This document shows positions 9,238-60,483 of a DNA stretch of 64,000 nucleotides, one piece after another (within the stretch, counting starts at the first letter, position 1; every line of letters starts with the position of its first letter). Made by a program: the position numbers and the translations under genes. The stretch is from the IMG/VR virus record IMGVR_UViG_3300010998_000812; one strand, 5' to 3'. Source of the stretch: an uncultured virus (IMG/VR IMGVR_UViG_3300010998_000812). Lineage: Duplodnaviria; Heunggongvirae; Uroviricota; Caudoviricetes. The notes under the pieces are model-generated. The model saw only the letters and a program-made list of their open reading frames with translations. It ran no database searches and was not told where the DNA came from.

Positions 9238-9516
9238 TTACTTTCCAAACAAATCGGCGTGAGTCCCGGTACCGGTGGCGGTAAGTATTAATACATCGTC
9301 GTGCTTTTGATAAACAAGCAGCCAATCGGGTTCTATATGACATTCTCTGAAGTCTTTAAGATTGCCGGTGAGCTGATGATCGTTATACTTAAGATCCATT
9401 GGTTCGCCCGAAGCAAGCAAGTCAAGAACTGTTACGAGCTTCGACATATCCTTCCCCCGCTTCTTCATAAGCTTGGCATTGCGCTTCATTTCATTTGTAT
9501 ATTCTATTTTGTACAC
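9238..9516 (-). CDS. yafQ: YafQ-family mRNA interferase toxin
   Basis: DHQLTGNLKDFRECHIEPDWLLVY..TGTHADLF, GTG start after AGGAGG. Confidence 0.9.
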   Translation of the reverse strand: MYKIEYTNEMKRNAKLMKKRGKDMSKLVTVLDLLASGEPMDLKYNDHQLTGNLKDFRECHIEPDWLLVYQKHDDVLILTATGTGTHADLFGK

Positions 9517-9526
9517 AATCCGCCTC

Positions 9527-9790
9527 CTATTCCTTAAGCATAGAAGCAACAGCATCTTCTGCTGTATTATACGGACCGTGCAGATTAACTCTGTTCCTGC
9601 TATCATAGATGGCTTCCCGCATACCTTCCGGCATAGTTCTATGCTTCACTTCGAAAGGCAATCCGTGATTTTCGATAGCTGCGGTCAGAAATATACGTAC
9701 AGCGGTTGATGTGTCAAATCCCAAGCTTGTAAAAAGAGTATCTGCCTGTTCCTTGAGTTCATCTGTAAGCCTTACCTGTAAATTAGCCAT
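9527..9790 (-). CDS. dinJ: RelB/DinJ-family antitoxin
   Basis: LQVRLTDELKEQADTLFTSLGFDTSTAVRIFL..GLPF, directly upstream of yafQ. Confidence 0.85.
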   Translation of the reverse strand: MANLQVRLTDELKEQADTLFTSLGFDTSTAVRIFLTAAIENHGLPFEVKHRTMPEGMREAIYDSRNRVNLHGPYNTAEDAVASMLKE

Positions 9791-13637: not shown

Positions 13638-14027
13638 TTATCTGCGTCCGGCAAGGAAATCGGACACTATATATCCCGCATTTTCGAACTCGAACTGTAT
13701 CCTGCTTTCAGGCGGCGTTGCCTGAATATCCTCCCATTTCATTGTTTCCACCCTCTCTTTGGTGTGTATGAACATCTCATCGAAAACCCTGAATGAGAAA
13801 CGTGCCGTACTGCATATAAGACAGGGTTCGAATGAATATCCATACCTGTTACGGGTAACAAAACCGGTCTTTACGCCGCTGTTCGTGACCTTTATGCCGT
13901 ACACAGGCACTCTGGGCATATCTTTTTCATAAAACATCATGTACGTTTCGTCTCCGCCGGGACGTATCATCGTCTCGAAGCCTCTGCGCTTAAGTGTTGA
14001 TATTATCTCATTCAGTATGCTTTCCAT
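13638..14027 (-). CDS. Hypothetical protein (paralog of 12443-12826)
   Basis: RBS GAAAGGA, shared N-terminal motif. Confidence 0.65.
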   Translation of the reverse strand: MESILNEIISTLKRRGFETMIRPGGDETYMMFYEKDMPRVPVYGIKVTNSGVKTGFVTRNRYGYSFEPCLICSTARFSFRVFDEMFIHTKERVETMKWEDIQATPPESRIQFEFENAGYIVSDFLAGRR

Positions 14028-14082
14028 TAAATATGATTCCTTTCGATTTTATCTTTCCTGCAATAATGTATATAACATTGCG

Positions 14083-14274
14083 CTATATAAGCGTTCCTGT
14101 ATAATTGACGGACAGAGGTTTATTGCACACCATTAAGTAAGGGGCTATATCCTCGCTGTCCGCATCTTCATGATCTTCAAGTTTTTGTCCTATGTATGTT
14201 TCATAGCTATCAAGGACGCGGGCTATGTAAAAACAGATGAGACCGACGATTATTACAACTGTTGCAGCAGACAT
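14083..14274 (-). CDS. Small membrane protein
   Basis: N-terminal transmembrane helix, RBS AGGAGAGG. Confidence 0.55.
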   Translation of the reverse strand: MSAATVVIIVGLICFYIARVLDSYETYIGQKLEDHEDADSEDIAPYLMVCNKPLSVNYTGTLI

Positions 14275-14277
14275 ATC

Positions 14278-14916
14278 TTATCCTCTCCTGCCTCTGATAC
14301 GCAGATCGAGCTGTTCAGGGTCTTTCTTGCCGAGAAGCTTAGTAACATACTGCTGTACATTCTTATAGTTGTCATCCTTGGCGTCGGTAAATCTTACCCC
14401 ATACTGGTGTGAGTTGTGTACATCTCCTGCAAAGCGGACGATCTCACCTTCGCCTTCATATATACCTAAGCCGGAAGAAGAGGAAAGAGAGAACCGAAGC
14501 TTGACTTTATCGTGAACATTGAATTCTGAGTTTGATTTAAGCAGTACGCCGCTAATCGAGATGTTCATTATCGTAGCGTTGATGTTCTCTGCACCGGGGA
14601 CGCTTATAGCAGAAGGAATTACCGATGTAACCCTCTCATCTCTTCTGCGTTCCACGCCGGTAAGGAGACGAAGCTCTGTCAGCACCACAGCACTGTCGTC
14701 ATACGAAACAACCGTTCCTTCATATACCTCAAGTGTGTCTCCTTTGCCGTTTATGAGGATAGCTACCGTCTTGATGTAATCAAGGTTCTTGCTTAAGTCT
14801 GAGCAATTGACGAGCAGCTTATCGTCGGCGGATACAGCCACTGTTCCAATTCCGAGAATAGTGTCATCTTTAATATGCTTTATTGTTGCAGTTGTGCCTG
14901 TAGTAATGTTGCACAT
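14278..14916 (-). CDS. PilZ-domain protein (c-di-GMP receptor)
   Basis: ERRRDER (RxxxR), NISISG (D/NxSxxG) and YGVRF. Confidence 0.85.
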   Translation of the reverse strand: MCNITTGTTATIKHIKDDTILGIGTVAVSADDKLLVNCSDLSKNLDYIKTVAILINGKGDTLEVYEGTVVSYDDSAVVLTELRLLTGVERRRDERVTSVIPSAISVPGAENINATIMNISISGVLLKSNSEFNVHDKVKLRFSLSSSSGLGIYEGEGEIVRFAGDVHNSHQYGVRFTDAKDDNYKNVQQYVTKLLGKKDPEQLDLRIRGRRG

Positions 14917-14956
14917 ATTTATTTCTCCTTTTTTATATTCAAATTCTAATCTCCTA

Positions 14957-15104
14957 TCTCCCACTTCTATAAGCGTTTACCGGAATACTATGGCAAAATT
15001 AACCTTGGTGAGAGTTAACACCGATATAGATGCCACTTCCTCGGCTACGGATATTATAATCCAGCGCCAAGCTTACGTCACCACAAGGACATCAAGCTGC
15101 CCCG
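14957..15104 (-). ncRNA. Dispersed structured leader motif, minus-strand copy with ~38-nt insert
   Basis: Reverse complement reads CGGGGCAGCTTGATGTCCTTG..GAAGT..AACTCTCACCAAGGTTAAT..ATAGTATTCC..GTGGGAGA, upstream of the PilZ gene. Confidence 0.8.
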
Positions 15105-15227
15105 TAGGTCACATAATCATCTGCGACCATCGTTTATAATAGTATGATTTCTCAGGCAGAAAACCCTCAGCTTATACCTTTCGTACACATTATTTTCTTA
15201 TATGCTTGTCCTTATTTTTCATACCTA

Positions 15228-15387
15228 TTGACATTCACTTCAAAACATGGTATATTATTATCAAGGCAAACGATGACAAAACAGCTTCGTTGCTGAACTT
15301 TCTTTTTACAGGGTAATAGGTTTTGCGACAGATCACACAATCACCTCCAACACACTAACAGCTCTCACCGTGAGGGCTGTTTTGTTT
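15228..15387 (+). ncRNA. Promoter-sRNA-terminator unit 1
   Basis: TTGACA-17-TATATT, ATCACCTCC, terminator AACAGCTCTCA..TGAGGGCTGTTTT. Confidence 0.6.
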
Positions 15388-15440
15388 ATATAGCGACTTG
15401 AGTCTCGTACACACCTTTGAAACAAAATAAAGAAAATATA

Positions 15441-15580
15441 TTGACATTTCGCGTAAAAATGATATAATATAAACAAGGCAGAGTTTATTCGATTGTCTCT
15501 GCTGAAATTTTGTGTCAATATTTTGGGTTTGGCTCCTTTCTAAAGAAACTCCTCGATTACTCCAGCGGGGAGTTTTCTTT
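15441..15580 (+). ncRNA. Promoter-sRNA-terminator unit 2
   Basis: TTGACA-16-TATAAT, 5' hairpin GCAGAG/CTCTGC, CTCCTTTC, terminator. Confidence 0.6.
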
Positions 15581-15618
15581 GGGTCAAGGATGCGGCTTGT
15601 CCTTATTTTCTAAAACTA

Positions 15619-15780
15619 TTGACTCTGAAACAGAACAATGATATAATATATATAAGGTCAAATGACGGCGCTTGACCGAATTTTCTTCTTATTTTTTCTA
15701 ATTTTCTTTATTCTTTTTACCTTCTTTCGCTCATGTCTTTAACCGAAGAAAGGCTCTTCATTCAGGAAGGGTCTTTTTTC
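15619..15780 (+). ncRNA. Promoter-sRNA-terminator unit 3
   Basis: TTGACT-17-TATAAT, hairpin GGTCAA/TTGACC, pyrimidine tract, terminator. Confidence 0.6.
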
Positions 15781-15787
15781 ATTTCAC

Positions 15788-15895
15788 TTGAAATATTTGT
15801 TTTCTTATATTATAATAATAGATGTAAAGATCATATCTTTACAAATTTTCTCTCAACACCGGAAGCCCGCGTAAACAGCGGGTTTCTTCTTTTTT
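15788..15895 (+). ncRNA. Promoter-sRNA-terminator unit 4
   Basis: TTGAAA-17-TATAAT, hairpin TGTAAAGAT/ATCTTTACA, terminator GAAGCCCGC..GCGGGTTTC. Confidence 0.55.
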
Positions 15896-16002
15896 ACGCA
15901 AAACGTCAATATAATATAAACAAAATCCCGCTGATAAAACCTTCATAATTTGTGCAAAACGCAGAATGTTGAGCTTTAAGAAGATAAATTTACTTAAGAT
16001 GC

Positions 16003-16190
16003 TTGACTTTTTCATTTTATATGGTATAATCTGCTTAAGGTGCGAGAATAGAAGATGCTTGCAACCTTTGCTTGAAGGCAATGAAATCGGCTCTTGAAGT
16101 CGGTATGTGTGAGAAAGCATCAAGATATGATGTTCGTTCTTAAGAAGAGGTAAGAAATAGGCTGTGATATCTTTACAGCCTTTTTTCTTT
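16003..16190 (+). ncRNA. Promoter-sRNA-terminator unit 5
   Basis: TTGACT-16-TATAAT, terminator AGGCTGT..ACAGCCTTTTTT. Confidence 0.55.
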
Positions 16191-16341
16191 CTAAAAGCAA
16201 AATATGAGTGATCGTGCTGCGGATGACATCGGGAATTGCACCGAATGCCGGACTTGCGAAGCCCGCTGCCCAATGAGCCCCTGCGGGGGCTCTTTTGTTC
16301 GCCTAAAATGTCGCTCATACACAGAATTGAAAGAAAATCTA

Positions 16342-16466
16342 TTGACATTTTCGCGAAAACATGATACAATACATACATAGAGTTAATCTCAACCTCTTGA
16401 GATCGTCTAACTCAAAAAACATCCAACCAGCGAAAGGGATCACGGCGGCTACCGTGGTCTTTTTTG
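16342..16466 (+). ncRNA. Promoter-sRNA-terminator unit 6
   Basis: TTGACA-17-TACAAT, hairpin ATCTCAA/TTGAGAT, terminator GATCACGG..CCGTGGTCTTTTT. Confidence 0.6.
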
Positions 16467-16583
16467 TTAATACGGAGCAAAATATGATGTGTACAAGAAG
16501 CATAAGTTTACGGTTTTCCTCGCCGTAAATCATACTATTTATGAGACCTCGTAGTGAGGCGAATTTTTAAGGAGGAATAACAA

Positions 16584-17918
16584 ATGAACAACAGAGAGTC
16601 AACCCTGAACATCGTCTGCACCATAGCTTTTCTTATCGGTGTACGGCAGGATACTATTGACCTGCATTACGGCGGTGAATGCGGAGAGCTTATCAAATCT
16701 CTGGAAGGGAATAAGGATGCGGTTAACATCAGAAGCCTTTGCAGACTAAGGACAAGCTTAATGCAGAATTTCAGGAAAACGGACAATGAGCTGCGGTACA
16801 ACATGAACAACATCAACCGGCAGGAATGGTTTCCGCAGGATGCCATCAGAGCACTGGAACGCAACGGCATCTATCCCATCCTCGCCAATAAGCTTGCTAC
16901 CGACTATAATGTATTCTTCGGAAAGAAGATAATCGAACTCATCGACAAGTGCAAGCCTTTGTTCCCAAGTTGGGTGGAATGGAAATACATATTAGCTTTG
17001 TTTGTTCAGCATAAGATCGACGATGTAAATACTCAGAAGAGAGAATTCGAGAAGTATAAGGGTAATATCAATAACTACCCCTTCCAGTGCTATATCATTT
17101 GGGAGCCCTCGGATATCGGCAATTGGCTTCAGAACGATAATAAGTTCCTCGGACACCTTTATAAGATGAATGGTGTGAAGTTCACCGACAGCGATAAGTG
17201 TCAGACTGTAAAGGCAGAGGTAAAGGACGGCATCTACGATTTTATCAATGACAGCGACAATACCGTGCTTGTAGTTGATTGTGAGAACAGTGATGTATTC
17301 AAGCTCTACAGCGTGCTTAAGAGCTGCAACAAAGACGAGATCAATAAGATCAGCAAGATAATGCTCTTTGACGACGAACACACATCAAGCGGATGGGATC
17401 ATATCAGCGATTACATCGATATTCCGGTAGAGCACCTCATGGTAGACAGAGTTATGGACCGCAAATCTCTCGTAGATATCAAGGTAACTGCGGGTGTATG
17501 CAAGGAATTCTATCAGAACGGAACATCCTCGTTTATACTCTTCTCCAGCGACTCTGATTATTGGGGGCTTATATCCTCTCTCCCTGATGCAAAGTTTATG
17601 GTGATGGTCGAAAGCATCAAGTTCGGCAAGGATACCAAGGCGACACTTGAGAAGAATAATGTAAGCTACTGCTGTATAGATGAGTTCTGCACCGGCAATA
17701 TCGAAGAACTGAAGCACTCCATTCTCCTCGAAAAACTCAACGAAGAGCTTCCCAAGCTCATTAACCGTAACGGATATGAACTTGCAAGGTCACTTTACAA
17801 CAGAGCCCACTTTGAGGCAAACGAGAACGAAATCAAGAACTTCTATGAGAAGTATATAAGAACCCTGAAGCTCTCCTTCGACAGCGAAGGCAATATCACG
17901 CTCGTAGCAAGCAAGTAA
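16584..17918 (+). CDS. NYN-domain (PIN-like) protein
   Basis: LVVDCENS..KSLVD..LFSSDSDY acidic motifs. Confidence 0.75.
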   Translation: MNNRESTLNIVCTIAFLIGVRQDTIDLHYGGECGELIKSLEGNKDAVNIRSLCRLRTSLMQNFRKTDNELRYNMNNINRQEWFPQDAIRALERNGIYPILANKLATDYNVFFGKKIIELIDKCKPLFPSWVEWKYILALFVQHKIDDVNTQKREFEKYKGNINNYPFQCYIIWEPSDIGNWLQNDNKFLGHLYKMNGVKFTDSDKCQTVKAEVKDGIYDFINDSDNTVLVVDCENSDVFKLYSVLKSCNKDEINKISKIMLFDDEHTSSGWDHISDYIDIPVEHLMVDRVMDRKSLVDIKVTAGVCKEFYQNGTSSFILFSSDSDYWGLISSLPDAKFMVMVESIKFGKDTKATLEKNNVSYCCIDEFCTGNIEELKHSILLEKLNEELPKLINRNGYELARSLYNRAHFEANENEIKNFYEKYIRTLKLSFDSEGNITLVASK

Positions 17919-18352
17919 CAGTAAAAAGGATACCGGCGGGTGTATCTGCATCCGCCGTATTCCGAAGATGTTTTCACTTAAGGAGATTTTGACCATCAAC
18001 TACATTTTCAGTCAGCCAATATCGAAAAAAGTCGTCAAAAACTAAGGCTTTTTGTTCTAATATTTTTCGTACACATCTATTTTGAAGTGAAAAATCATAA
18101 CAAATGACAGCAGCTCAAAGTGGGATAACAATCATCGACGGTCTTATGACAGCAGTTGACAAAGTGGGCAAATTTAAGAGTTAATACTTAAGGGAAAAAT
18201 ACGAAAAGTCGGATTTTCCTGCATTGATCTTTTTGAAAAAATAAGACTTAAAACAACCACAAACAAGCATTATTAAAGCATTTATTCGACTTAAGATGAA
18301 AACGAAAAGGAAAACTGTAAATTTGTGGGACTATGGAGAGGAGGCAAGAGTT

Positions 18353-18691
18353 ATGGCGTTCGGAACGTATTTGAATGATATGCTTAACAAGAAGGGTATG
18401 TCGCAGAGCGAATTAGCTACTAAAGCAGGGATGAACAAAGCTACCCTAAGTACGATAATAAAGAAGGATACAGATAAGATAAGCATCGGGCTATTTTTCA
18501 AGATATGTGATGCTCTCGAATGCTCACCCATCATATTCAAAAATTATTATAAAATGGACAACCTTGACCCGGATGCTAAAGAATTTCTCCGCTTATATAA
18601 TATGGCAAACGATAAAGGAAAGGATCTAATAGCAGCTCTTGTGATAGGATTATCCGCAAATCCGAAGTACAGAAAGGAAACAAAAGAATGA
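18353..18691 (+). CDS. XRE-family HTH regulator
   Basis: KKGMSQSELATKAGMNKATLSTI..ICDALEC. Confidence 0.85.
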   Translation: MAFGTYLNDMLNKKGMSQSELATKAGMNKATLSTIIKKDTDKISIGLFFKICDALECSPIIFKNYYKMDNLDPDAKEFLRLYNMANDKGKDLIAALVIGLSANPKYRKETKE

Positions 18692-19323
18692 GACAGTTAA
18701 TAATAGTAAGGAAAGACCTTAATATGGGTATAGGGAAGCTTGCGGCTCAGTGCTGCCATGCGAGCAACGCATATTTTATGCACCTGTTTAAAGGAAGAGA
18801 GGAGTGGCTAAGCCGTACTCCGGTCGAGCCTTACGCGGCACACCTTGCAGTTGACGAAGACGGGAAACCCGCCCTTTATAGACTGAATGAACTTTCAGAA
18901 TATGCTCAGAGAGCTGTAAACGAAGGAAAGGTGATATTCTTCACCAAGTTTGTACCCCATGAAGAGGGGAGCAAGTTCGGCAAGCTCGAATGGGCAGACC
19001 CGGAAGAGGTTAAGTTCGTATACAGCGGCAAGGTCATCATTCCATCAGATGTGTATGAGAACTGGGTCAATGATATCTACACAAAAACGGTATGCGAGGC
19101 AAAGACTAAGAACCATCTGCTTAAGGCGGTAGCAGCGGCACAGGAGCTTGGATTGCGGGAAGATGAAGATTTCTTCCTTATCAAGGACAGATGTCTTACC
19201 GAACTTGAGCCTGAAGAAACAGATGAGAACGGTGTGGGATATACGCTGACCTGTATTGGGTTCAAGCCGCTTGAAGATGAAATAGCCCACACCATAAGCA
19301 AGAAATATCAGCTTTTGAAGTGA
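18688..19323 (+). CDS. Peptidyl-tRNA hydrolase, Pth2 family, with a large insertion
   Basis: QLIIVRKDLNMGIGKLAAQCCHAS..IKDRCLTE..TCIGFKP. Confidence 0.8.
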   Translation: MRQLIIVRKDLNMGIGKLAAQCCHASNAYFMHLFKGREEWLSRTPVEPYAAHLAVDEDGKPALYRLNELSEYAQRAVNEGKVIFFTKFVPHEEGSKFGKLEWADPEEVKFVYSGKVIIPSDVYENWVNDIYTKTVCEAKTKNHLLKAVAAAQELGLREDEDFFLIKDRCLTELEPEETDENGVGYTLTCIGFKPLEDEIAHTISKKYQLLK

Positions 19324-19399
19324 TCAGCGTAAAGGCTTTGCTTCGGTATTGAAATTCCACGAAATATATGTTATAATAGTATATACAACAAACATTATT

Positions 19400-19510
19400 C
19401 GGGGCGGCTCGACGCCCTTGTGACGACGAAGTACCTATCAAGTATAGGCAACTCTCGTTAAGGTCAATTCCTGTATAGTATTCCGCAGGACGCTTGCGAA
19501 AGCGCGAGAA
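19400..19510 (+). ncRNA. Dispersed structured leader motif copy
   Basis: CGGGGCGGCTCGACGCCCTTG..GAAGT..AACTCTCGTTAAGGTCAAT..ATAGTATTCC..GCGAGAA, after a TTGAAA-17-TATAAT promoter. Confidence 0.85.
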
Positions 19511-20522: not shown

Positions 20523-22406
20523 ATGAATATAGAATTTCAATGTGGCGGACTGATACTGCTTGTTATAATAATGTTGTTATTCATAAAGGAAAAGAAATTA
20601 GGAATAACCAACAGTAAACTGTTCTTTTTCGCTCTTATCTCATGTATAGTCTGCGAAGTGTTTGATATAGCCTCGATCATAGCGATACACGAGGCTGTGT
20701 ATAACGGCTTTTCTGACATCATCACCAAGATCACTTGTAAGCTGTACCTATGCTCCCTTGTCTTGCAGGGATATCAAGGCTTTCTGTACGCTTCCTCAGA
20801 GGCGCTATACGCCAAAAGGAACAAGCGCACAAAGATTTTTTGCTTGATATTCTTTATTTTGGGTGAAATTGCCATCTTAACGAATGAAATATCATACTAT
20901 ATGGATGGCAGAACGGTCTATTCATACGGACCGTCTACCAAAATAACCTACGCTATAGCCGTAGTGTTCATAACCTTAACTATCTGGACAGCTTTCAAAT
21001 ACAGGGAAGGATTGATGAAGAGAAGACGCAATGCCATGCTTATATGGCAAGGTTGTTGGCTTCTTGCGGCAATCGTGCAGTTTATATTTCCTCAACTGTT
21101 ACTTGTAGGTTTTGCAGCCGCAGTGGGAATGGTAATACTTTACGCAGAGCTTGAGAACCCAAATGAATTTACCGACCGGGGGACAGGGTTGTTCACTCCG
21201 AATGCTATGAAGATGTTCGTGAAAGATATGTTTCTTCGCGAAAAGAAATTTTCAGCTATATTTTTCAAAGCTAAGTTTGTGTACGAGACAGCGGAATATG
21301 AGATAGAACAGGCTGTGACCCAGAGAATAGTAAAAGCAATAGGCAGGCTCGGAGAAGAACCAGCATTCAAGCTTGATGACAACCTATATGCAATCATATA
21401 CGAAGACGAGAAAGAACTGCAAAAGAAGTTCGAAATACTCAAAAAGATGGCTGACAGCGTAACAGATGTAAAAGCCGATGGTATGTATATCCTTATACCG
21501 GACAGCAGCGTATTTGAAAGCTACGAGGAGTTCTTCTTATTTCAAAGATATTACGAAGACGCTGGTCCGGGCATTATAACCGTTGACGAAGCAACGATAG
21601 AAAAGATAAGAAAACGTGAAAACACAAGGATATTCATTGACAATGCGTTGAGAGATGATAGGGTACAGGTATTCTATCAGCCGTTCTTTGACACTAAAAA
21701 GGGTTATTACACTGTTGCGGAGGCTCTTGTCCGCGTATTTGATGAAAACGGTAGGATCGTTCCTCCTATGGAGATAATCCCGATAGCGGAAGAAAACGGA
21801 CAGATAATGCCTCTCGGAATACGGATATTCGAAAAAGTCTGCGAGTTCCTTGAAAAGGGAGAAGCTCAGAAACTTGGTATTGAATACATCGAGGTCAACA
21901 TCTCAGCGGCTCAGTTTGATCACGAAAACCCTTATCTGTTTGTTACAGAGATTATGAGGAAACATAACATCAAGGCTGAATGGATCAACCTTGAGATTAC
22001 CGAAACAGCTTCAAATGACTTAAAACACGTTTTACTTCTCAATATGAATAAACTCATATCCGAAGGTATAGAATTCTCACTTGACGACTTCGGTACAGGC
22101 AGGTCTAATCTGGACTACTTTGTGAATATGCCTGTGAAGAACATCAAATTTGATTACAGCTTTACTCAAGGGTTCTTTACGAATGATAAGATAAAGCAGG
22201 TAATGACGGGTATGACAGACATCTTACATAACATGAATATGCATATCGTATCAGAGGGGATAGAGACCAAAGAACAGATGGATGCGATGATAGACTTGAA
22301 TATAGAATACATACAAGGCTATTATTTATCGAAGCCTATTAACGAAATCGAATTCATAGAATTCCTTAAAGAAAAGAACAAGGAATATGTTGGTTCATAC
22401 ATATAG
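20523..22406 (+). CDS. Membrane-anchored EAL-domain c-di-GMP phosphodiesterase with degenerate GGDEF
   Basis: About 7 N-terminal transmembrane segments, DRGTGL..FKLDDNLY (degenerate GGDEF), YQP..AEALVR..VNIS..LEITE..SLDDFGTG..IKFD..SEGIET..IQGY. Confidence 0.9.
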   Translation: MNIEFQCGGLILLVIIMLLFIKEKKLGITNSKLFFFALISCIVCEVFDIASIIAIHEAVYNGFSDIITKITCKLYLCSLVLQGYQGFLYASSEALYAKRNKRTKIFCLIFFILGEIAILTNEISYYMDGRTVYSYGPSTKITYAIAVVFITLTIWTAFKYREGLMKRRRNAMLIWQGCWLLAAIVQFIFPQLLLVGFAAAVGMVILYAELENPNEFTDRGTGLFTPNAMKMFVKDMFLREKKFSAIFFKAKFVYETAEYEIEQAVTQRIVKAIGRLGEEPAFKLDDNLYAIIYEDEKELQKKFEILKKMADSVTDVKADGMYILIPDSSVFESYEEFFLFQRYYEDAGPGIITVDEATIEKIRKRENTRIFIDNALRDDRVQVFYQPFFDTKKGYYTVAEALVRVFDENGRIVPPMEIIPIAEENGQIMPLGIRIFEKVCEFLEKGEAQKLGIEYIEVNISAAQFDHENPYLFVTEIMRKHNIKAEWINLEITETASNDLKHVLLLNMNKLISEGIEFSLDDFGTGRSNLDYFVNMPVKNIKFDYSFTQGFFTNDKIKQVMTGMTDILHNMNMHIVSEGIETKEQMDAMIDLNIEYIQGYYLSKPINEIEFIEFLKEKNKEYVGSYI

Positions 22407-22420
22407 AAAAACGTTATTTG

Positions 22421-22532
22421 CGGGGCGGCTCGACGTCCTTGTAACGATGAAGCAGCATCTATAACGGTGTTAACTCTCGTTAAGGTTAATTCTGCCATAG
22501 TATTCCGGCAGACACTTATTGAAGCGCGAGAA
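22421..22532 (+). ncRNA. Dispersed structured leader motif copy
   Basis: Same conserved blocks, starting 14 nt after the EAL stop codon. Confidence 0.85.
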
Positions 22533-23202: not shown

Positions 23203-23502
23203 GTGAATATCGAAATGTCGGCGGACAAGAAAAACGTAACGGTACACCTTACAGGCGAGGTCGATGCTCTTAACGCCCCGGATATAGAGGAAAAGATAAT
23301 AGAAAAGATACCTGTAGCGGAAGAAATCATTATAGACGCAGCAGGGCTTGAGTACATATCGTCTTCAGGACTGAGAATACTGTTGGTAGCTCAGAAGGCA
23401 ATGAAAAATAAGGGCGGTCATATGGTTATAAAACATGTAAATGAAGATGTAATGGATGTGTTTAACGTCACAGGCTTCGCAAAGCTGTTAGATATAGCTT
23501 AA
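23203..23502 (+). CDS. STAS-domain anti-sigma-factor antagonist
   Basis: LTGEVDA..LEYISSSGLRILL..VFNVTGF. Confidence 0.9.
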   Translation: MNIEMSADKKNVTVHLTGEVDALNAPDIEEKIIEKIPVAEEIIIDAAGLEYISSSGLRILLVAQKAMKNKGGHMVIKHVNEDVMDVFNVTGFAKLLDIA

Positions 23503-23512
23503 GTATACAATT

Positions 23513-23655
23513 CGGGGTGGCTCCGGCTACAGGCAGAGCCTGATGTCAGCTTCGCGACGCCCTTGTGACGATGAAGTACCTATCAAGTATAAGCAACTCT
23601 TGTTAAAGTCAATTCCTGTATAGTATTCCACGGGACACTTATGATAGTGCGAGAA
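23513..23655 (+). ncRNA. Dispersed structured leader motif copy with ~32-nt insert in the GCTCGA loop
   Basis: Conserved blocks plus insert CCGGCTACAGGCAGAGCCTGATGTCAGCTTCG. Confidence 0.8.
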
Positions 23656-23683: not shown

Positions 23684-23945
23684 TTCAACTACCCACCACT
23701 AAAGTAGCGGGATTGTGAAACAATCGAGTTGAATAGCCTAAGTGAAGAGCTAAAAGCTCTGAACTACGTTAAGAGAGAATGTATAGTTACCTACGGATGT
23801 AGTACCAAGTCTGTAGCTCTAAGGTCAATGATTAAACAGCTTTTCGGGGAAGAAGCAGTGTTGTTGACAAGAAACCTCTCATTAACATTGGCGATGGTAC
23901 ACTAACGGTAAGATATACACCGGCTTAATGCGTAAAGTATATCAA
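23684..23945 (+). ncRNA. omegaRNA (HEARO-type) scaffold of IscB
   Basis: TCAACTACCC..CTAAAG..GGG, GTTGAATAGCCTAAG, CTACGTT, CCAAGTC..GCTCT, AACATTGGCGATGG, immediately upstream of iscB. Confidence 0.85.
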
Positions 23946-23969
23946 TCTTAAGAGAAGGAGAGCCTTTCA

Positions 23970-25253
23970 ATGGTATATGTGTTAAACAAGAACGGGCAGC
24001 CGCTTATGCCTACTGAAAGGCACGGTAAAGTAAGGAGACTGCTTAAGTCTAAGAAGGCTATAGTAGTCAAGAGATGTCCGTTCACTATACAGCTACAATA
24101 TGAATGTGGCAATGTAACACACCCTATTACTTTAGGCGTGGATGCAGGGAGCAAACATATAGGTCTATCTGCGGCTACAGAGAATAAAGAGCTTTATGCA
24201 GCAGAAGTGGAGCTTCGTAACGACATTGTTAAACTCTTATCTGCGAAACGAGAGCTTCGCATATCTCGTAGGAACAGAAAGACTCGATATCGCAAGGCAA
24301 GATTTAATAATCGGGTGAGTGCTAAGCGAGACGGGTGGTTAGCTCCTTCGTTGCAGCACAAGGTTGATACACATCTTAAGGTGATAGCGGATTTACATAA
24401 AATACTGCCTATCACAAAGATAGTGGTTGAAGTAGCTGCTTTCGATATTCAAAAAATCAAGAACCCTGATATACAGGGGACTGAGTATAAACAAGGTGAA
24501 CAGTTAGGGTTTTGGAACGTCAGAGAGTATGTGCTGTTCAGAGATGGACATCAATGCCAGTGCTGTAAGGGCAAATCTAAGGATACAATACTCAATGTGC
24601 ATCACATAGAGAGCAGGCAGACCGGAGGAGATGCACCCAACAATTTGATTACGCTATGCGAAACATGTCATACCGGGTATCATAAGGGTACTGTCAAGCT
24701 CCCTAAAACCATAAAGCGAGGCATGAGGTTCAAGGATGCTGCATTTATGGGTATAATGAGATGGGCTTTCTTTGAAGAGCTTAAGCGTACATACCCGGAT
24801 GCAAGACTTACGTATGGGTATATTACAAAACATACGAGGATATCGAATGGCTTAAGTAAAACTAAGACTGTTGATGCTCGCTGTATTAGTGGCAATCCTA
24901 TGGCTACTCCCTTAGATACTGTATACTATCTTAAGAAGGTACGGTGTCATAATAGACAGATACATAAATGCACTATTAACAAAGGCAGCATTCGCAAGCG
25001 TAATCGAGCACCATACGATGTTAATGGCTTCAGACTCTTTGATAAAGTAAGATACCAAGGTGCCGAACGCTTTATCTACGGAAGAAGGTCATCCGGGTAC
25101 TTTGATATCAGAGGGCTTGACGGTACAAAGATTTCTTCAAGTGTAAGCTACAAAATGCTAACATTATTGGAGACAAGAAAAAACATTCTAATAGAAAGGC
25201 ACTTGACTGATGAAAAACGAAACCAATCAAAAATCTCCTGCCTTTGCCACTAA
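23970..25253 (+). CDS. iscB: RNA-guided endonuclease IscB (IS200/IS605 OMEGA)
   Basis: PLMP domain (GQPLMPT), RuvC-I LGVDAG, Arg-rich bridge helix, RuvC-II VVE, HNH (CQCC..HHI..NLITLCETCH), RuvC-III VDARCI. Confidence 0.95.
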   Translation: MVYVLNKNGQPLMPTERHGKVRRLLKSKKAIVVKRCPFTIQLQYECGNVTHPITLGVDAGSKHIGLSAATENKELYAAEVELRNDIVKLLSAKRELRISRRNRKTRYRKARFNNRVSAKRDGWLAPSLQHKVDTHLKVIADLHKILPITKIVVEVAAFDIQKIKNPDIQGTEYKQGEQLGFWNVREYVLFRDGHQCQCCKGKSKDTILNVHHIESRQTGGDAPNNLITLCETCHTGYHKGTVKLPKTIKRGMRFKDAAFMGIMRWAFFEELKRTYPDARLTYGYITKHTRISNGLSKTKTVDARCISGNPMATPLDTVYYLKKVRCHNRQIHKCTINKGSIRKRNRAPYDVNGFRLFDKVRYQGAERFIYGRRSSGYFDIRGLDGTKISSSVSYKMLTLLETRKNILIERHLTDEKRNQSKISCLCH

Positions 25254-26406: not shown

Positions 26407-26479
26407 AATATCTGTGTACAGCAAACAAGACTTTTTGATTTTCCTTCCGAGAAGTCATACTATTAACAAATAAATAATT

Positions 26480-26590
26480 CGGGGCAGCTCGATGCCCTTG
26501 TGACGATGAAGTGCCTATCAAGTATAGGTAACTCTCGTTAAGGTTAATCCTCCCATAGTATTCCGAGAGGCGCTCATTGAAGTGCGAGAA
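26480..26590 (+). ncRNA. Dispersed structured leader motif copy
   Basis: Conserved blocks, about 18 nt after a CATACTA promoter box. Confidence 0.85.
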
Positions 26591-26990: not shown

Positions 26991-27016
26991 AACGGAAAGA
27001 CTTTCCATAGATATAT

Positions 27017-27126
27017 CGGGGCGGCTCGACGTCCTTGTGGCGATGAAGTGCTTGTTTAATATAAGTAACTCTCGTTAAGGTTAATCCCTGTATAGTATTC
27101 CACAGGGCACTTATGAAGCGCGAGAA
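27017..27126 (+). ncRNA. Dispersed structured leader motif copy (no clear downstream ORF)
   Basis: Conserved blocks, with the 3' AAGTGCGAGAA repeated again at ~27145. Confidence 0.85.
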
Positions 27127-27492: not shown

Positions 27493-27732
27493 TATGTTGG
27501 TGCGAAACGGAATATTTCAGAATATTTCGTGAAGCTCGGATTTGACATCTCTTAAGAGAAGCTTAAGCTGTGTACGACCTATGAATTTAGGTATTGCAAT
27601 TACCGGGGAACCATGCTATAATTTAAGAACAAAGAGGCAGAAGATAATATTTGTAAGTAAAAAGATGTGTACGAACAACAACAGTTTATGATTTTCCTCG
27701 CGAAAAGTCATACTATTAACAAATAAATAATT

Positions 27733-27844
27733 CGGGGCAGCTCGATGTCCTTGTGGCGACGAAGTGGCATCTATAACGATGTTAACTCTCGTTAAGGTTA
27801 ATCCCACAATAGTATTCCTGTGGGCACTTGTAGGAGTGCGAGAA
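27733..27844 (+). ncRNA. Dispersed structured leader motif copy
   Basis: Conserved blocks after a CATACTA promoter. Confidence 0.85.
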
Positions 27845-30587: not shown

Positions 30588-30595
30588 CAGTATTT

Positions 30596-30740
30596 CGAGC
30601 TGGCTCGACAGCCTTGTGGTGGACGAAAGTCAGGCATCAAGCTTTGCTTGTAGCCGAGAAGTACCTATCAAGTATAGGCAACTCTCATCAAGGTTAATCC
30701 CTACATAGTATTCCGTAGGGCATATTAATAGGTGCGAGAA
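30596..30740 (+). ncRNA. Dispersed structured leader motif copy with ~34-nt insert before GAAGT
   Basis: GCTG-GCTCGA-CAGC hairpin, insert CGAAAGTCAGGCATCAAGCTTTGCTTGTAGCCGA, remaining blocks conserved. Confidence 0.8.
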
Positions 30741-32085: not shown

Positions 32086-32097
32086 TGACACAATGAT

Positions 32098-32207
32098 CGG
32101 GGCAGCTCGATGCCCTTGGAACGATGAAGTACCTATCAAGCATAGGCAACTCTCGTTAAGGTTAATTCCGTCATAATATTCCGGCGGACACTTATGATAG
32201 TGCGAGA
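32098..32207 (+). ncRNA. Dispersed structured leader motif copy
   Basis: Conserved blocks, 12 nt after the upstream stop codon. Confidence 0.85.
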
Positions 32208-34264: not shown

Positions 34265-34372
34265 TTGACATTTTTCTATTTTCATGATACTATATACATG
34301 TCAGGGTGGTAGCTGACAAAAATAGTGATTATTTGAATAAAGCCTCGGATTAAGTTCCGGGGCTCTTTTTTT
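34265..34372 (+). ncRNA. Promoter-sRNA-terminator unit (~75-nt transcript)
   Basis: TTGACA-17-TACTAT, hairpin TGTCAG/CTGACA, terminator. Confidence 0.55.
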
Positions 34373-34380
34373 GCTCATTT

Positions 34381-34465
34381 ACGGAAAGACTTTCCATAAT
34401 AAACGGAAAGACTTTCCGCCCTCAATGCTACCAAACGGCTTTATTGAGCCACGGAAAGTTTTTCC
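34381..34465. repeat. ACGGAAAGACTTTCC imperfect-palindrome repeats
   Basis: Copies at ~34381, ~34403 and ~34451 (variant), and another at ~26993. Confidence 0.65.
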
Positions 34466-34513
34466 GGTATATATGTTTCGTACACAGCTTTAGAAGAAAT
34501 ACGAGAAAAAATA

Positions 34514-34735
34514 TTGACAAAATATATAATGCATGGTATAATAATTAAGGATAAAGAATAGTATAGACCAACGGTTTTGCTGCGGTTCCGGGTTGAGTGT
34601 TTAGACTTATGGAACGTGAATGCAACAGGAACGGTGCTATTCAGAACACATCCGTAGATAATTACGTCGGGGCTACAGACCGACAAACAGTGAGACTGAG
34701 AAAGAGACGGGCGACACACTCGTCTTTTTCTTTTT
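34514..34735 (+). ncRNA. Promoter-sRNA-terminator unit (~185 nt, long irregular hairpin)
   Basis: TTGACA-17-TATAAT, GAATAGTA/TGCTATTC closing helix with GTTCC/GGAAC inside, terminator AGACGGG..CTCGTCTTTTT. Confidence 0.6.
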
Positions 34736-34828
34736 ATTTTATGATAGGCTTGTCCCTTTTTTCGGGGAGGCTTGTCCTTTTTTTCAAAAAGTATTGACTC
34801 TTGAGAGAAAATGATCTATAATAGTAAA

Positions 34829-35585
34829 TGTGACGAATGATATATCATGTTTCTTCGCTCTTTGGTGATTTTGACCAAGCGTGAGACGGCGAAGCTCTGG
34901 CGACGGAGTGTCACTCCCTCCTCGATGTACCATCCGTTACTAATTGTACCGTACGGCATACGGGAATTAACGCTTGTGGAGACTTCGTAATTCGTAGCTT
35001 TTTACAGAAGGCTATGTAGCGGTCGATGAAGCAAGAGCCACGGGTTTAACTGCGTGGAATGCTATAAGGCAAATATTACCGTCGGGCTCAGAGCGCCCGC
35101 AACCGCTCTGTATTTTACCCCACAGCAGGCTTATTCACATAAACTCGCTCAAGGGTCATACAAGCGGGCATACAGTCATCTGTATCGTATCCCCCGCACA
35201 CTCCTTTCGTCATATGCCATTCTCTTTCTGCGGCGGTCTTAGTGTAAATGAAGAGGACACTTTGTACAGCCCTAAAGAGCAGCCCGTTTCTTAGGGAAAA
35301 TGGTGACGGACTTCCGTCCATCTAACGGTATTCCCTCCGTTGTGGCATCACGAAACTCCATTCGTCAACCAGCAGGCAACGCAGAGCCTCTCGTTTGAGA
35401 GAACGGCGACGCGCTACGCGAACGACTTTTAACGGTAAAATCATTGCCTTATCTCCAATCTTCTTAAGAGATCTCTTACTCGTCTGTGTTTCACGGTTCC
35501 GTGCAATACAGCTGCGACGTAAGGGATTTCTTTTTTGGGGAAATCAAAAGGCAGGTATCCGGATAATGGATATCTGCCTCTTTGT
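34829..35585 (+). ncRNA. Candidate large (~750-nt) structured RNA
   Basis: TTGACT-17-TATAAT at 34794-34822, no credible ORF, GC-richer with many hairpins, TGACGAATG/CATTCGTCA long-range helix, terminator at 35549-35585. Confidence 0.55.
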
Positions 35586-35587
35586 TG

Positions 35588-36253
35588 TTATTCATCTTTT
35601 GAAGATGCTTCTTCGTTGTCATTGTTGCACATCTCAAGAGCAGCAAGGACTTCATTTGTATCGAAGTCTTCGTAGTCCTGAACACTGGCATTGCCGTCAT
35701 CATCCAGAAGCATAAGTTCTGTCTGAGTGGGAAGAGTGTGATATCCGTTAGACACCTCAATGTGCTTTGCTATTCTGTCGGGTATTGATGTGATGTTATA
35801 CTCCTTTAAGGTAACAGCATTGGTTATGTAAGAATGTGTATCCGGTATATACACACTTACGAATACAGGCTGGCTGTTTTCTCTACACAGAGTCATCAAG
35901 TCGTCAATATATCTTTCGACATCAAGTGTCGGGGCATCCCCGTTCTGAACACTGACTACGTCTTCTCCATTTTGACGAGCTACTCCATCGGCATCTATAT
36001 TCATAAGATTATCCTTTGGAGGAACAGTATCAAAGCCATTGGCAACATTAAGGTGTTCGGTGATCTTATCCGGTTCAGCTTCCACAGATATAGAAATAGG
36101 GGAAACTATATCGGATATATATTCCTTTTTTTCAGGTACATAGACTGTAACGAACATCGGTATCTTACTTTTCTGACAATATTCTCTCAAATCTCTGATT
36201 TTCTTCTGAGCTGCGAGCTTAGTCACATTCTCAGGAAAAGCATAAGCCGGCAT
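35588..36253 (-). CDS. Hypothetical protein with internal duplication, third gene of the par operon
   Basis: Two copies of DL...C.....P.FV.VY.P....YI...PD.I..H..V.NG..T.P. Confidence 0.7.
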   Translation of the reverse strand: MPAYAFPENVTKLAAQKKIRDLREYCQKSKIPMFVTVYVPEKKEYISDIVSPISISVEAEPDKITEHLNVANGFDTVPPKDNLMNIDADGVARQNGEDVVSVQNGDAPTLDVERYIDDLMTLCRENSQPVFVSVYIPDTHSYITNAVTLKEYNITSIPDRIAKHIEVSNGYHTLPTQTELMLLDDDGNASVQDYEDFDTNEVLAALEMCNNDNEEASSKDE

Positions 36254-50426: not shown

Positions 50427-50551
50427 TAAAAACGAAGGCAGGAGCGACTTAAGTCTTCTGCCTTTTATTTGTGTAGAAAAAACAATAGTTTTCGATTTTC
50501 TTTTCGTTCAATCATACTATTATTAAATGGTCATAGATAGTTCGTGACCTA

Positions 50552-50662
50552 CGGGGCAGCTCGATGTCCTTGGGACGATGAAGTGCTTATCCGGCATAAG
50601 CAACTCTCGTTAAGGTTAATCCCACAATAGTATTCCTGTGGGCACTTGTGGTAGTGTGAGAA
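50552..50662 (+). ncRNA. Dispersed structured leader motif copy
   Basis: Conserved blocks, plus an extra 5' GGTCA/TGACC hairpin like that of the minus-strand copy. Confidence 0.85.
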
Positions 50663-52243: not shown

Positions 52244-52397
52244 GAAAAGATGTGATAATATTATAACGAAGGGGCAATCAGTTTGCGTGGTACACATCTT
52301 TCAGTAAACAAGGAAATTGAGCGAATAATTTGTGTACAAACGACAACAGTTTGTAGTTTTCCTTCCGAGAAGTCATACTAATGACAGATAAATAATT

Positions 52398-52508
52398 CAG
52401 GGCAGCTCGATGTCCTTGGGACGATGAAGTACCTATCAAGCATAGGCAACTCTCGTTAAGGTTAATTCACACATAGTATGCCGTGTGACGCTCTTTGAAG
52501 TGCGAGAG
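52398..52508 (+). ncRNA. Dispersed structured leader motif copy
   Basis: Conserved blocks after a CATACTA promoter. Confidence 0.85.
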
Positions 52509-57121: not shown

Positions 57122-57286
57122 ACGGATAATAGCATTTCAAGACAATAAACAACAGAAAAGGGATACCGTGTGTATCTCTTTTTTGTTTTGTTCCGTGAAA
57201 TTTCATACTATTTATATAGCTTTTTTAAGACGACTGGAGAGTATGTCTGAAAATGCTTAAATCTAAAATATGAAAGGAAAATGATA

Positions 57287-57958
57287 ATGATTACAGAAAT
57301 TAGAAAAAGGGACGGAAGGACTACATCGTTCAACGTCCAGAAGATAGCGGACGCTATATTCAAGGCTGCTGTAGCTACCGGCGGCAATGATTACGAAGAG
57401 GCAAACGCACTCGCGAAGGAAGTGTGTACAGTCCTTGAGCGTAAGGGCGGCGAGAACTATGTTCCTACAGTTGAGGAAGTTCAGGACGCCGTTGAAAAGG
57501 TGCTTGTAGAGACCGGTCACGCAAAGACTGCAAAGGCATACATCCTTTACAGAGCGGACAGAACTCGTATCAGAGAGATGAACACATCTCTTATGAAGAC
57601 ATATGAGGATCTTACGTTCAAGTCAGCTCAGGACTGCGACATCAAGCGTGAAAACGCTAACATCGACGGCGATACGGCAATGGGTACTATGCTTAAGTAT
57701 GGTTCTGAAGGCGCAAAGCAGTTCAATGAGATGTATGTACTCGATCCGGTTCATTCAAGAGCTCACATCGACGGGGACATTCACATTCACGACCTCGACT
57801 TCTACACACTCACAGAGACCTGCTGCCAGATAGACCTTAAGAAGCTGTTTCACGGCGGTTTTTCTACCGGTCACGGGTTCCTGCGCGAGCCTAACAGCAT
57901 AGCAAGCTACGCTGCTCTTGCTTGTATAGCGATACAATCAAATCAGAATGACCAGCAT
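57287..57958 (+). CDS. nrdD: Anaerobic ribonucleoside-triphosphate reductase, exon 1 (ATP cone)
   Basis: IRKRDGR..VEEVQDAVE, RENAN, IHIHDLD, TCCQ, ending QSNQNDQH. Confidence 0.92.
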
Positions 57959-58830
57959 TAACAAATAAATATCTGTGCCAGTATAGAGAAATCTATACTG
58001 AAAACCACGTTAACCTATGTTCAAAGGGTGTAGGAATAACTCCTTAAGAGGCAGCGTAGGAAATGACGCTTTGTATTCCTGCTAACAGGGGATTAAAAGG
58101 ATCCTGTGCCACGTTAGTATTACAAAAGTAATAACTGAAAGGTGGTGTGCGTATGGTAAGAATTAACAGTTTATACTCTTTGGAAATCGTAATGGACTAT
58201 TATTATATAAGCGAAGACTTAAGGATTGTAAACAATGTGACAAAAACAGAAAAGAAGATATCTATCAACAAAAGAGGATATCCTTATGTTACATTGGAAA
58301 CCCGTGAAAATCGGAATATAAAAGTTCCGATTCATAAAATCGTTGCTCTTGCTTTTATAAAGAATGCTCCATATGAGTTGATAGAACATATTGATGATGA
58401 CAAGATGAATTATGCCATCACCAATTTAAAGTTTTCCAATCATAAAAACAATGCGCTTTCAGCAAGTAAACATGGATTACTTCATAAAAAAGAAGCTGTT
58501 TACAGATTGTCTTTGAAAAGCGGAGAAGTTTTTATGGGAACTATAAAAGAACTTGTAAAACTATCATCAATTCCTAAAGGAACGCTATATGACAATTATT
58601 ATACTGCACGAAACGGAAGAATAAAAGAAATTGTATTACTAACAGGTTAACAGACTGTCGAAAGGCTACTTTAACGCATAAGGTCGGGCAACTCCAAATC
58701 GATAGAGAATGCCCTAATAAAGAGCACCGAGTAGAGTAGGATGGAGATGAACACCATTCCAAAATGTGGTGAACCCAGCGCTTGAAGGCGGGGTCAGTGG
58801 TATAGTCGGCGGCTTCACAAAGAAGTCACG
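57959..58830 (+). mobile_element. Group I intron in nrdD
   Basis: Exon 1 ends in T and the intron ends in G. Splicing restores QNDQH-GGQSIPNFD. P7-like CAGACTG/TATAGTC elements and an internal HNH ORF are present. Confidence 0.9.
58153..58650 (+). CDS. Intron-encoded HNH homing endonuclease
   Basis: GYPYV..IHKIVALAF..EHIDDDKMNYAITNL..N. Confidence 0.85.
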   Translation: MVRINSLYSLEIVMDYYYISEDLRIVNNVTKTEKKISINKRGYPYVTLETRENRNIKVPIHKIVALAFIKNAPYELIEHIDDDKMNYAITNLKFSNHKNNALSASKHGLLHKKEAVYRLSLKSGEVFMGTIKELVKLSSIPKGTLYDNYYTARNGRIKEIVLLTG

Positions 58831-60417: not shown

Positions 60418-60483
60418 TACTTGACAAAGGAGAAAATAGGTGGTATAATATATACTACTTAAGGAAACGAATGGAGGACTAAT

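Follow-up and report, generated by a model that had tools for sequence, protein, structure and literature searches.

A gene-free array of six host-type promoter and terminator units, candidate small-RNA genes, in a phage-like element from cattle gut

The stretch of DNA analyzed here (the window) comprises 64,000 nucleotides of an uncultured phage-like element of the cattle gut (IMG/VR record IMGVR_UViG_3300010998_000812, Caudoviricetes) that looks like a large phage or phage-plasmid. Positions 15181-16470 of this 64-kb window form a gene-free segment of about 1.3 kb, referred to below as the array, with a G+C content of 0.39 versus about 0.43 in the flanks. On its left lies a PilZ operon that is read leftward, and on its right an operon that is read rightward and includes a gene for an NYN ribonuclease-like protein. 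A 59-nt inverted repeat brackets the array exactly, and each of its arms is a promoter-like site pointing outward, toward the PilZ operon on one side and the NYN operon on the other (Table 1). These sites belong to a second, element-specific promoter-like class, here called class B. Thus the array forms a self-contained insert, placed between the divergent promoters of two operons. Inside it we find six units, U1 to U6, each composed of a host-type promoter, a short stretch without a credible open reading frame (ORF), and an intrinsic terminator.

A sequence-only reading of the locus had placed the −35 hexamers of six near-consensus promoters at 15228, 15441, 15619, 15788, 16003, and 16342. 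All six were found there. They are of the sigma-70 type, lie on the plus strand, and match the consensus at 12 of 12 positions in U2 and at 11 of 12 in the other five; the TG of an extended −10 element accompanies all but the U4 promoter, and A/T-rich sequence is visible 5′ of them. The minus strand of the array holds no site of 11/12 or better. Among 5,000 dinucleotide-preserving shuffles, 4,880 contained no such promoter, 120 contained one, and none contained two or more. Over both strands of the entire window the same threshold returns 17 sites, so that 2% of the sequence accounts for 6 of them. A repeat search revealed the promoter modules to be paralogous: U1 and U3 have 55 nt in common at 71% identity and U2 and U6 have 21 nt at 95%, while the remaining pairs align over 29 to 33 nt at 64 to 83%. 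The 55 nt common to U1 and U3 include a GCTTGTCCTT box, found again ahead of a promoter in a second cluster described below, and the promoter spacers of U2 and U6 have a palindrome of the TTTTCGCGAAAA type in common.

The proposal that each promoter is followed by a terminator also held, with six predicted terminators closing ORF-less stretches of 72 to 154 nt. The RNA lengths in Table 1 assume a start 7 nt after the −10 element. Terminators are positioned 8 to 116 nt before each next −35 hexamer, and the region 14000-18000 contains 10 terminator-like sites, against 2.9 ± 2.0 in shuffled sequence. An additional terminator, with no consensus promoter of its own, lies in a segment between U5 and U6 (segment X in Table 1). 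As to coding capacity, the longest ORF of the array (179 amino acids, minus strand, 15839-16378) has a codon-usage score of −0.02, which compares with 0.01 ± 0.13 for 27 shadow ORFs and 0.29 ± 0.07 (minimum, 0.11) for 35 genes of the window. None of nine array ORFs tested reached a Pfam cut-off or matched a PHROG, and their codon scores fall in the range of shadow ORFs, in agreement with the earlier statement that the segment lacks a credible ORF. We therefore consider it very probable that the array consists of six independent ORF-less transcription units that are read by the sigma factor of the host.

Table 1. Positions of the array units and of other features of the window. Promoter intervals of U1 to U6 begin with the −35 hexamer; RNAs, terminators, and pairing states are predicted. 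A minus sign in parentheses marks a site on the minus strand.
Feature	Position	Strand	Promoter	RNA	Terminator	Fold z	Remarks
Left boundary	15138-15196	−					Left arm of inverted repeat; class-B promoter-like site toward PilZ operon; boxes TGTGTAC, GGTTTTC, CATACTAT
U1	15228-15392	+	15228-15256	~15263-15392 (~130 nt)	15357-15381	−1.4	5′ hairpin, unpaired tract, 16S-tail-like ATCACCTCC at 15340-15348
U2	15441-15582	+	15441-15468	~15475-15582 (~108 nt)	15559-15573 (extended stem 15540-15582)	−2.2	5′ hairpin, unpaired tract, CTCCTTTCTA at 15533-15542, long terminator stem
U3	15619-15787	+	15619-15647	~15654-15787 (~134 nt)	15745-15780	−3.2	5′ hairpin, ~45-nt pyrimidine-rich tract with tandem AAUUUUCUU-type motif (~3 repeats)
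U4	15788-15897	+	15788-15816 (no TG)	~15822-15897 (~76 nt)	15861-15887	−6.8	9-bp 5′ hairpin, fully unpaired AAAUUUUCUCUCAACACC
Inverted promoter fragment (U2/U6 type)	15888-15913	−					26 nt, 88% complementary to 15437-15462
U5	16003-16190	+	16003-16030	~16037-16190 (~154 nt)	16159-16181	−2.8	Four hairpins
Segment X	16191-16300	+			16275-16292		No consensus promoter; 58-codon ORF (16204-16380) running into terminator
U6	16342-16473	+	16342-16370	~16377-16473 (~97 nt)	16429-16468 (17-bp stem and U run)	−6.2	Palindrome TTTTCGCGAAAA in promoter spacer; nested 5′ hairpin, unpaired AAAAAACAUCCAACC
Right boundary	16481-16539	+					Right arm of inverted repeat; class-B promoter-like site toward NYN operon; NYN gene start 16584
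Second cluster (V1-V3)	34265-35590	+					Same promoter/terminator grammar as array
V1		+	34265	~73 nt	34341-34364		Same hairpin-tract-terminator layout
V2		+	34514	~194 nt	34698-34732
V3		+	34794	~760 nt	35549-35579	−4.7	ORF-poor, G+C-richer
Further unit	860-1152	−	1152-1124	~260 nt	881-860		Extended −10 promoter (11/12); no credible ORF
Class-B sites (examples)	3790 (−), 15146 (−), 16531, 26456, 27709, 38145 (−), 42886 (−), 48954 (−), 50513, 52374, 57204, 61210
~110-nt element (11 copies)	14965-15112 (−); on plus strand 19392-19501, 22413-22523, 23505-23646, 26472-26581, 27009-27118, 27725-27835, 30588-30730, 32090-32199, 50544-50653, 52390-52499
PilZ, EAL, STAS-domain, PTH2-like, and YafQ-type toxin genes	9238-9606 (−), 14278-14964 (−), 18688-19323, 20523-22406, 23203-23502
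HEARO RNA and IscB-type gene	23684-25253	+					RNA immediately 5′ of gene
nrdD, two pieces	57281-60417	+					HNH endonuclease ORF 58147-58650 between pieces

Folding predictions bear out the layout that had been proposed for most units, a 5′ hairpin followed by an unpaired tract and the terminator, in U1 to U4 and U6; U5 has four hairpins instead. The first hairpin starts no more than about 3 nt from the predicted 5′ terminus in all six units as well as in V1 of the second cluster, and that of U3 (15677-15656) also scores as a terminator-like site on the minus strand. In Firmicutes, hairpins at the 5′ terminus shield RNA from 5′ exonucleolytic decay. The tract after the hairpin is predicted to be single-stranded in all units except U5 and is pyrimidine-rich in U1 to U4. 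Its motifs have mean unpaired probabilities of about 0.5 in U1 and U2, 0.8 to 0.9 in U3, and 1.0 in U4 and U6. Two short sequences recur at fixed places. U1, U2, U3, and U5, like the ORF-less V2, begin with AAGG exactly 7 nt after the −10 element (AAGG is also found a few bases later in the gene-preceding unit at 60421), and GAA(n)UUUUC follows the hairpin in U1 to U4. The reading frame of the latter motif differs from unit to unit among U1, U2, and U3, and the motif hence is conserved as nucleic acid, not as protein. No match to the array reached the gathering score of any Rfam family, including CRISPR repeats, type III antitoxins, riboswitches, and leaders. The best match at an E value of up to 10, Trp_leader, scored 29.9 bits (cut-off, 41) and lies on the U4 terminator, which accounts for it.

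The sequence-only reading had further pointed to motifs in U1 and U2 that are complementary to Shine-Dalgarno (SD) sequences. They are present, and more specifically they are copies of the 16S rRNA tail. As the query we used the 17-nt 3′ end of Firmicute 16S rRNA. Matches of at least 9 nt to it occur only twice on the two strands of the 64-kb window, as ATCACCTCC in U1 and CTCCTTTCTA in U2 (the latter can alternatively be written CTCCTTTC(TA), 15533-15542). Each of these 9- to 10-nt copies is on the transcribed strand, where it follows the 5′ hairpin and precedes the terminator. In shuffled array sequence, two or more such matches have a probability of 0.0007.

The grammar of the array recurs elsewhere in the window, in the cluster V1 to V3 and in a single unit on the minus strand near 1 kb (Table 1), and on this count about 10 host-type promoters would drive ORF-less units. 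Neither the V1-V3 cluster nor the single unit has a match in Rfam; V3 is, from its predicted fold, a candidate large structured RNA, and the unit at 1152-860 is, judging by its promoter, terminator, and lack of a credible ORF, a candidate noncoding RNA. A 5′ terminal hairpin is found in 7 of the 10 ORF-less units of the host-type promoter class (U1 to U6 and V1) versus, by reading of the sequences, none of the four gene-preceding units of the same class (9850 on the minus strand, 19349, 33372, and 60421).

The element occurs in animal-gut sequencing runs, several of which are labeled bovine gut, and contigs of four other runs from four studies were compared with the window over 14000-18000. 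All six units are present in all four runs; in three of them the array is on a single contig and in the fourth on two overlapping contigs. The differences within the array are three substitutions, at 15415 (three runs), 15662 (one run), and 16271 (four runs), changes in the length of homopolymer runs at 15889 and 16413 (four runs), and a length change at 16007 (in part of one run). All six lie outside the promoter hexamers and stems, in a loop, spacers, single-stranded tracts, or homopolymer runs; position 15662, for instance, is in the loop of the U3 hairpin. In the NYN gene 10 differences are found, 8 of them at third codon positions.

How might such an array function? The best single reading, in our view, is the one suggested at the outset, a battery of small RNAs (sRNAs) that act in trans as antisense regulators. 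The proposed anatomy of the units is borne out, and the support for this reading is indirect: 5′ hairpins of a stabilizing kind, pyrimidine-rich tracts that appear to be exposed, and the two 16S-tail copies. Searches for targets within the window gave nothing above shuffled controls. In such a scheme the main sigma factor of the host would read six stacked units, each of which would yield a short ORF-less RNA ended by its own intrinsic terminator. The sRNAs would be stable and would be made once host polymerase meets the element, or constitutively if the element is a plasmid-prophage. Their exposed pyrimidine-rich tracts would then pair with mRNAs of the host or the element at purine-rich ribosome-binding regions, and U1 and U2 would present exact copies of the very 16S tail that normally reads the SD sequence. 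That the RNAs are selected products acting in trans on ribosome-binding regions through exposed pyrimidine-rich or 16S-tail-like tracts is a proposition that we hold to be evenly balanced.

Several observations weigh against this proposition. None of the 20 sequencing runs listed as containing the stretch or part of it is an RNA run. The statistic on the 16S-tail matches is post hoc, the motifs having already been picked out by the sequence-only reading. A comparison of all units with the window (blastn-short) returned only matches of 9 to 16 nt, which is the chance level; duplexes predicted by RNAduplex between the units and the leaders of class-B promoters were no better than those of shuffled RNAs, a weak test given the large spurious duplexes that such long inputs produce; and the longest complementary runs to the 11 copies of a ~110-nt RNA element of the window (see below) are at the null level. 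What complementarity is seen within the window consists solely of generic matches to purine-rich ribosome-binding regions. Moreover, the element's own genes have strong SD sequences (the NYN gene is an example), so that wholesale SD masking would strike the element too. Nor can the few differences seen within the array be taken as a sign of constraint, since the coding flank 14000-14964 has no difference common to all four runs and divergence is therefore patchy. No diverged relative of the array, or of the genes beside it together with their context, was found in INPHARED, PLSDB, IMG/VR, JGI metagenome contigs, or GTDB genomes. The individual searches behind this statement gave no useful match for the array among INPHARED phages (blastn) and PLSDB plasmids, nothing useful for the NYN protein in IMG/VR, JGI metagenome contigs, and GTDB genomes (one irrelevant weak GTDB match), and nothing useful for the PilZ protein and the promoter-module pattern in IMG/VR. 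Finally, the array bears signs of decay or rearrangement. The inverted promoter fragment at 15888-15913 holds a −35 hexamer and part of the spacer, and as it has no −10 element it is a relic of rearrangement. Segment X carries what is probably the relic of a ferredoxin-type gene (16204-16300, plus strand): its ORF encodes a ferredoxin-like CxxCxxCxxxCP motif with Fer4-type matches at E values of 0.002 to 0.04, all below the cut-off, has a codon score of −0.15, and is not preceded by a ribosome-binding site. In U1 and U3, AAGG at the RNA start is followed after 4 to 6 nt by ATG, which resembles the remains of a ribosome-binding site with its start codon, as if coding cassettes had lost their ORFs.

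The same signs of decay can be read as the history of a hyperplastic spot filled with empty or decayed cassettes, in which cargo was deleted or swapped by recombination between promoter repeats. What is selected would then be the insulation between divergent operons and a landing pad, with the transcripts as by-products. The model for such cassettes is the promoter-early stem-loop (PeSL) of the T4-type phages RB49, phi1, PST, and nt-1. PeSLs cluster in hyperplastic regions, mostly just 5′ of ORFans, and a modular shuffling by recombination is proposed for them (PMC2839356, PMC4122927); they are described there as strong sigma-70-like promoters with stem-loop terminators that mediate the shuffling (PMC2839356). 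The paralogous promoter modules (21 to 55 nt), the relics of the Fer4-like ORF and of the inverted promoter, and the SD-like starts of U1 and U3 all speak for this explanation. In addition, the matches of contig ends in one run extend from within the spacer of the U2 promoter as far as the U3 −35 hexamer, with loose ends at 15455, 15623, and 15658, and at least one contig there matches through the U3 promoter and its AAGG start and continues into unlike sequence, which hints that relatives carry other cargo behind the same promoters; possibly, however, the loose ends mark only similarity below the 85% setting used. If they had nothing to express, six near-perfect promoters would be expected to decay or to carry a cost, yet all six units are intact in the four other samples, and empty cassettes leave the 5′ hairpins and the two 16S-tail copies unexplained. 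We regard this explanation as rather unlikely. It can be partly true together with the trans-acting sRNAs, in the form of shufflable cassettes with RNA as their cargo. A more elaborate version, which we consider improbable, is a shufflable battery of sRNAs made by host polymerase, a "small-RNA integron," in which some RNAs are mimics of the 16S tail that serve in wholesale SD masking at take-over or as decoys for host factors or toxins that recognize or cut the anti-SD tail.

The position of the array calls to mind a further possibility, a replication origin primed by transcription, of the type found in the lactococcal phage c2 (Ceduovirus). The array is located exactly at the switch between leftward and rightward gene blocks, at the minimum of the cumulative GC skew, and is lower in G+C than its flanks. 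According to PMC7150918, the Ceduovirus origin is a noncoding region between divergent blocks, flanked by the early promoters PE1 and PE2; PE1 is followed by neither an ORF nor a ribosome-binding site, the PE1-T transcript is implicated in the initiation of replication, and what varies most is the sequence between the promoters. The noncoding region at a divergent junction, the tandem early promoters, and the ORF-less transcript are indeed alike, but there is one transcript there and at least six here, with further units at 34 kb and 1 kb, and a role in replication is here putative. Skew follows gene orientation throughout the window and therefore does not locate an origin; none of the 18 DnaA box matches of the window is in the array, which also has no iterons; and the RNAs end at efficient terminators and are pyrimidine-rich, which would make for weak RNA-DNA hybrids. 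An origin of this type thus appears improbable to us. Much less plausible still are micro-peptide genes or type I toxin-antitoxin pairs, an outcome that the sequence-only reading had itself raised as its refutation. Two ORFs might be considered. The only sizeable plus-strand ORF with a nearby SD-like sequence, the 26-codon ORF of U3 (15662-15742), encodes a strongly hydrophobic peptide, and its ATG stands 4 nt after AAGG; opposite U1 a 33-codon minus-strand ORF (15336-15235) starts with GTG, 7 nt after GGAGGTGAT, a perfect ribosome-binding site. Against this, the substitution at 15662 (A to C) turns the U3 ATG into CTG in one of the four other samples, and the shared motif after the hairpin occurs in three frames. 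Read on the minus strand, the 16S-tail motifs would be ribosome-binding sites, but a start codon at the proper distance is found there for the U1 motif only, with none 5 to 10 nt downstream of the 16S-tail-like motifs of U2 and U3; no minus-strand promoter better than 9/12 is present in the array; and, beside the absence of Pfam or PHROG matches, Rfam families of type I and type III antitoxins gave no match at E values up to 10. The least likely explanation, offered initially as an equal of the antisense sRNAs, is a sink that titrates RNA polymerase or sigma factor away from the host. The promoters are near-consensus, clustered, and without a protein product, as such a sink would require, but short, efficiently terminated units would set polymerase free again within seconds, 6 to 10 promoters per genome copy would be few relative to the number of polymerases in a cell, and neither the 5′ hairpins nor the conserved layout would be accounted for. 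We think titration extremely improbable, and leave a small remaining probability to explanations not conceived here.

The interpretation as trans-acting sRNAs can be set against known systems. Bacteria have clusters of sibling sRNA genes, such as LhrC1-5 of Listeria and Qrr1-5 of Vibrio, and sRNAs of Gram-positive bacteria mask ribosome-binding sites with C/U-rich seeds. The array units resemble these genes in having their own promoter and Rho-independent terminator, in their tandem arrangement, and in their unpaired, pyrimidine-rich, SD-complementary seeds. Each unit has a promoter, a terminator, and no credible ORF, and all but U5 have a tract that is predicted to be accessible. They differ in that they are not close siblings beyond the promoter and the short motif after the hairpin, in their phage-like carrier, and in the seeds themselves, which are short C-rich loops in the known families and, in two array units, exact 9- to 10-nt copies of the 16S tail. 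Another point of comparison is a complete 167-kb IMG/VR phage with direct terminal repeats (G001) whose gene for a peptidyl-tRNA hydrolase-like protein (PTH2) is 70% identical to that of the window. It has 58 perfect extended −10 promoters, 27 of which lie within 20 kb (80-100 kb), in what resemble "moron"-like modules for host take-over. Like the array, these are serial extended −10 promoters on one strand, each unit being closed by a terminator in most cases. In contrast to the array, where none of six units has a credible ORF, 24 of the 27 cassettes have a plus-strand ORF of at least 35 codons (as scored by a script), most of them with an SD sequence and ATG in a conserved start region (as judged by reading). 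With the same grammar being used there for ORFs, the lack of an ORF is a particular property of the array.

PeSLs are the closest known counterpart of this grammar. According to PMC2839356 and PMC4122927, they have in common with the array strong early promoters for the host sigma factor, AT-rich upstream sequence, stem-loop terminators, and many clustered repeats in non-core regions; each copy is a transcriptionally isolated module, and the repeated promoters are possible recombination sites. Promoter strength and a stem-loop adjoining the promoter are thus found in both. PeSLs, however, flank ORFan genes, whereas no credible ORF lies between the array modules; the PeSL motif is conserved over about 100 bp between copies, a length that suffices for homologous recombination, while the similarity between array copies is shorter and weaker (21 to 55 nt); and PeSLs belong to T4-type phages and the array to a Firmicute-type system in which shuffling is only hinted at. 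The words "tandem," "small RNA," and "noncoding" do not occur in PMC2839356. The promoter/terminator grammar, then, is already known, and the predicted RNA in place of ORF cargo is what sets the array apart. Most of the regulatory RNAs known from phages are single genes, found in a handful of model phages. In the present 64 kb, more than half of the 17 host-type promoter sites belong to the roughly 10 ORF-less units, which suggests that RNA, not protein, leads a program of take-over or maintenance. Should the RNAs be real, the 16S-tail copies would make them phage RNAs that compete with the ribosome for SD sequences, a notion that is directly testable, and the cassette grammar would carry the PeSL idea of mobile regulatory cassettes from ORFs of T4-type phages to RNA genes of Firmicute-type elements. 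Otherwise, the array clearly illustrates how promoter/terminator modules accumulate in phage control regions.

As regards the neighboring genes, the sequence-only reading had linked the array to the NYN gene directly downstream. This link is not supported, because the gene has its own class-B promoter 3′ of the last array terminator. In addition, homologues of the NYN protein with 35 to 46% identity are encoded on two unannotated fecal phage contigs and on megaplasmids of Ruminococcus albus, Vescimonas, and Butyrivibrio, and at none of six such loci is an array found upstream (three by a promoter and terminator scan, three by annotation with short intergenic gaps). On pRUMAL02 of R. albus and pMM35_01 of Vescimonas, the homologue is situated some 400 to 500 bp 3′ of mobC and a relaxase gene, a single small ORF intervening, and this proximity suggests a role in establishment or anti-defense.

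The class-B sites themselves have the boxes TGTGTAC(A), G(T/A)TTTTC(C), and CATACTAT. CATACTA(A/T) occurs 23 times in the window, about 20 times in intergenic DNA just 5′ of a co-oriented ORF (by reading), and the 13-mer around it was observed 21 times versus 4.3 expected. Class-B sites precede most genes. Their last box resembles the −10 elements of sporulation sigma factors; no sigma factor gene was seen among the scanned proteins of the window.

A structured RNA element of about 110 nt, which matches no Rfam family, is present in 11 copies, all co-oriented with genes and located just after a promoter or between cistrons. Covariance-model scores range from 82 to 130 bits, 97.5% of cells are paired, and 11 of 18 pairs have compensatory changes, values that were reached in none of 500 shuffles; a loop AUAGUAUUCC and the sequence AACUCUCGUUAAGGUUAAU are invariant. 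Its pattern gave nothing useful in IMG/VR (one chance match in coding DNA), JGI metagenomes, and GTDB, nor did the element itself in INPHARED. In rumen runs, read depth rises over the copy at 14957-15043, so that the element has multiple copies there as well. It may serve as a processing, antitermination, or insulator RNA, and could be a more novel object of the window than the array. The loop AUAGUAU complements the ATACTAT core of the class-B −10 box, which may be chance.

Many proteins of the window belong to PHROG families of unknown function. Among the others are a ParM-like partition protein, a Dam methylase, HNH/NUMOD4 homing endonucleases, c-di-GMP-related proteins (PilZ, EAL), a STAS-domain protein, and the PTH2-like peptidyl-tRNA hydrolase, which carries an insertion. 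A gene for a YafQ-type toxin sits behind a perfect host-type promoter. A HEARO RNA (133.9 bits) lies immediately 5′ of a gene for an IscB-type RRXRR/HNH protein. Lastly, nrdD, encoding the anaerobic ribonucleotide reductase, is in two pieces with an HNH endonuclease ORF between them, a pattern typical of intron or homing-endonuclease invasion in large phages.

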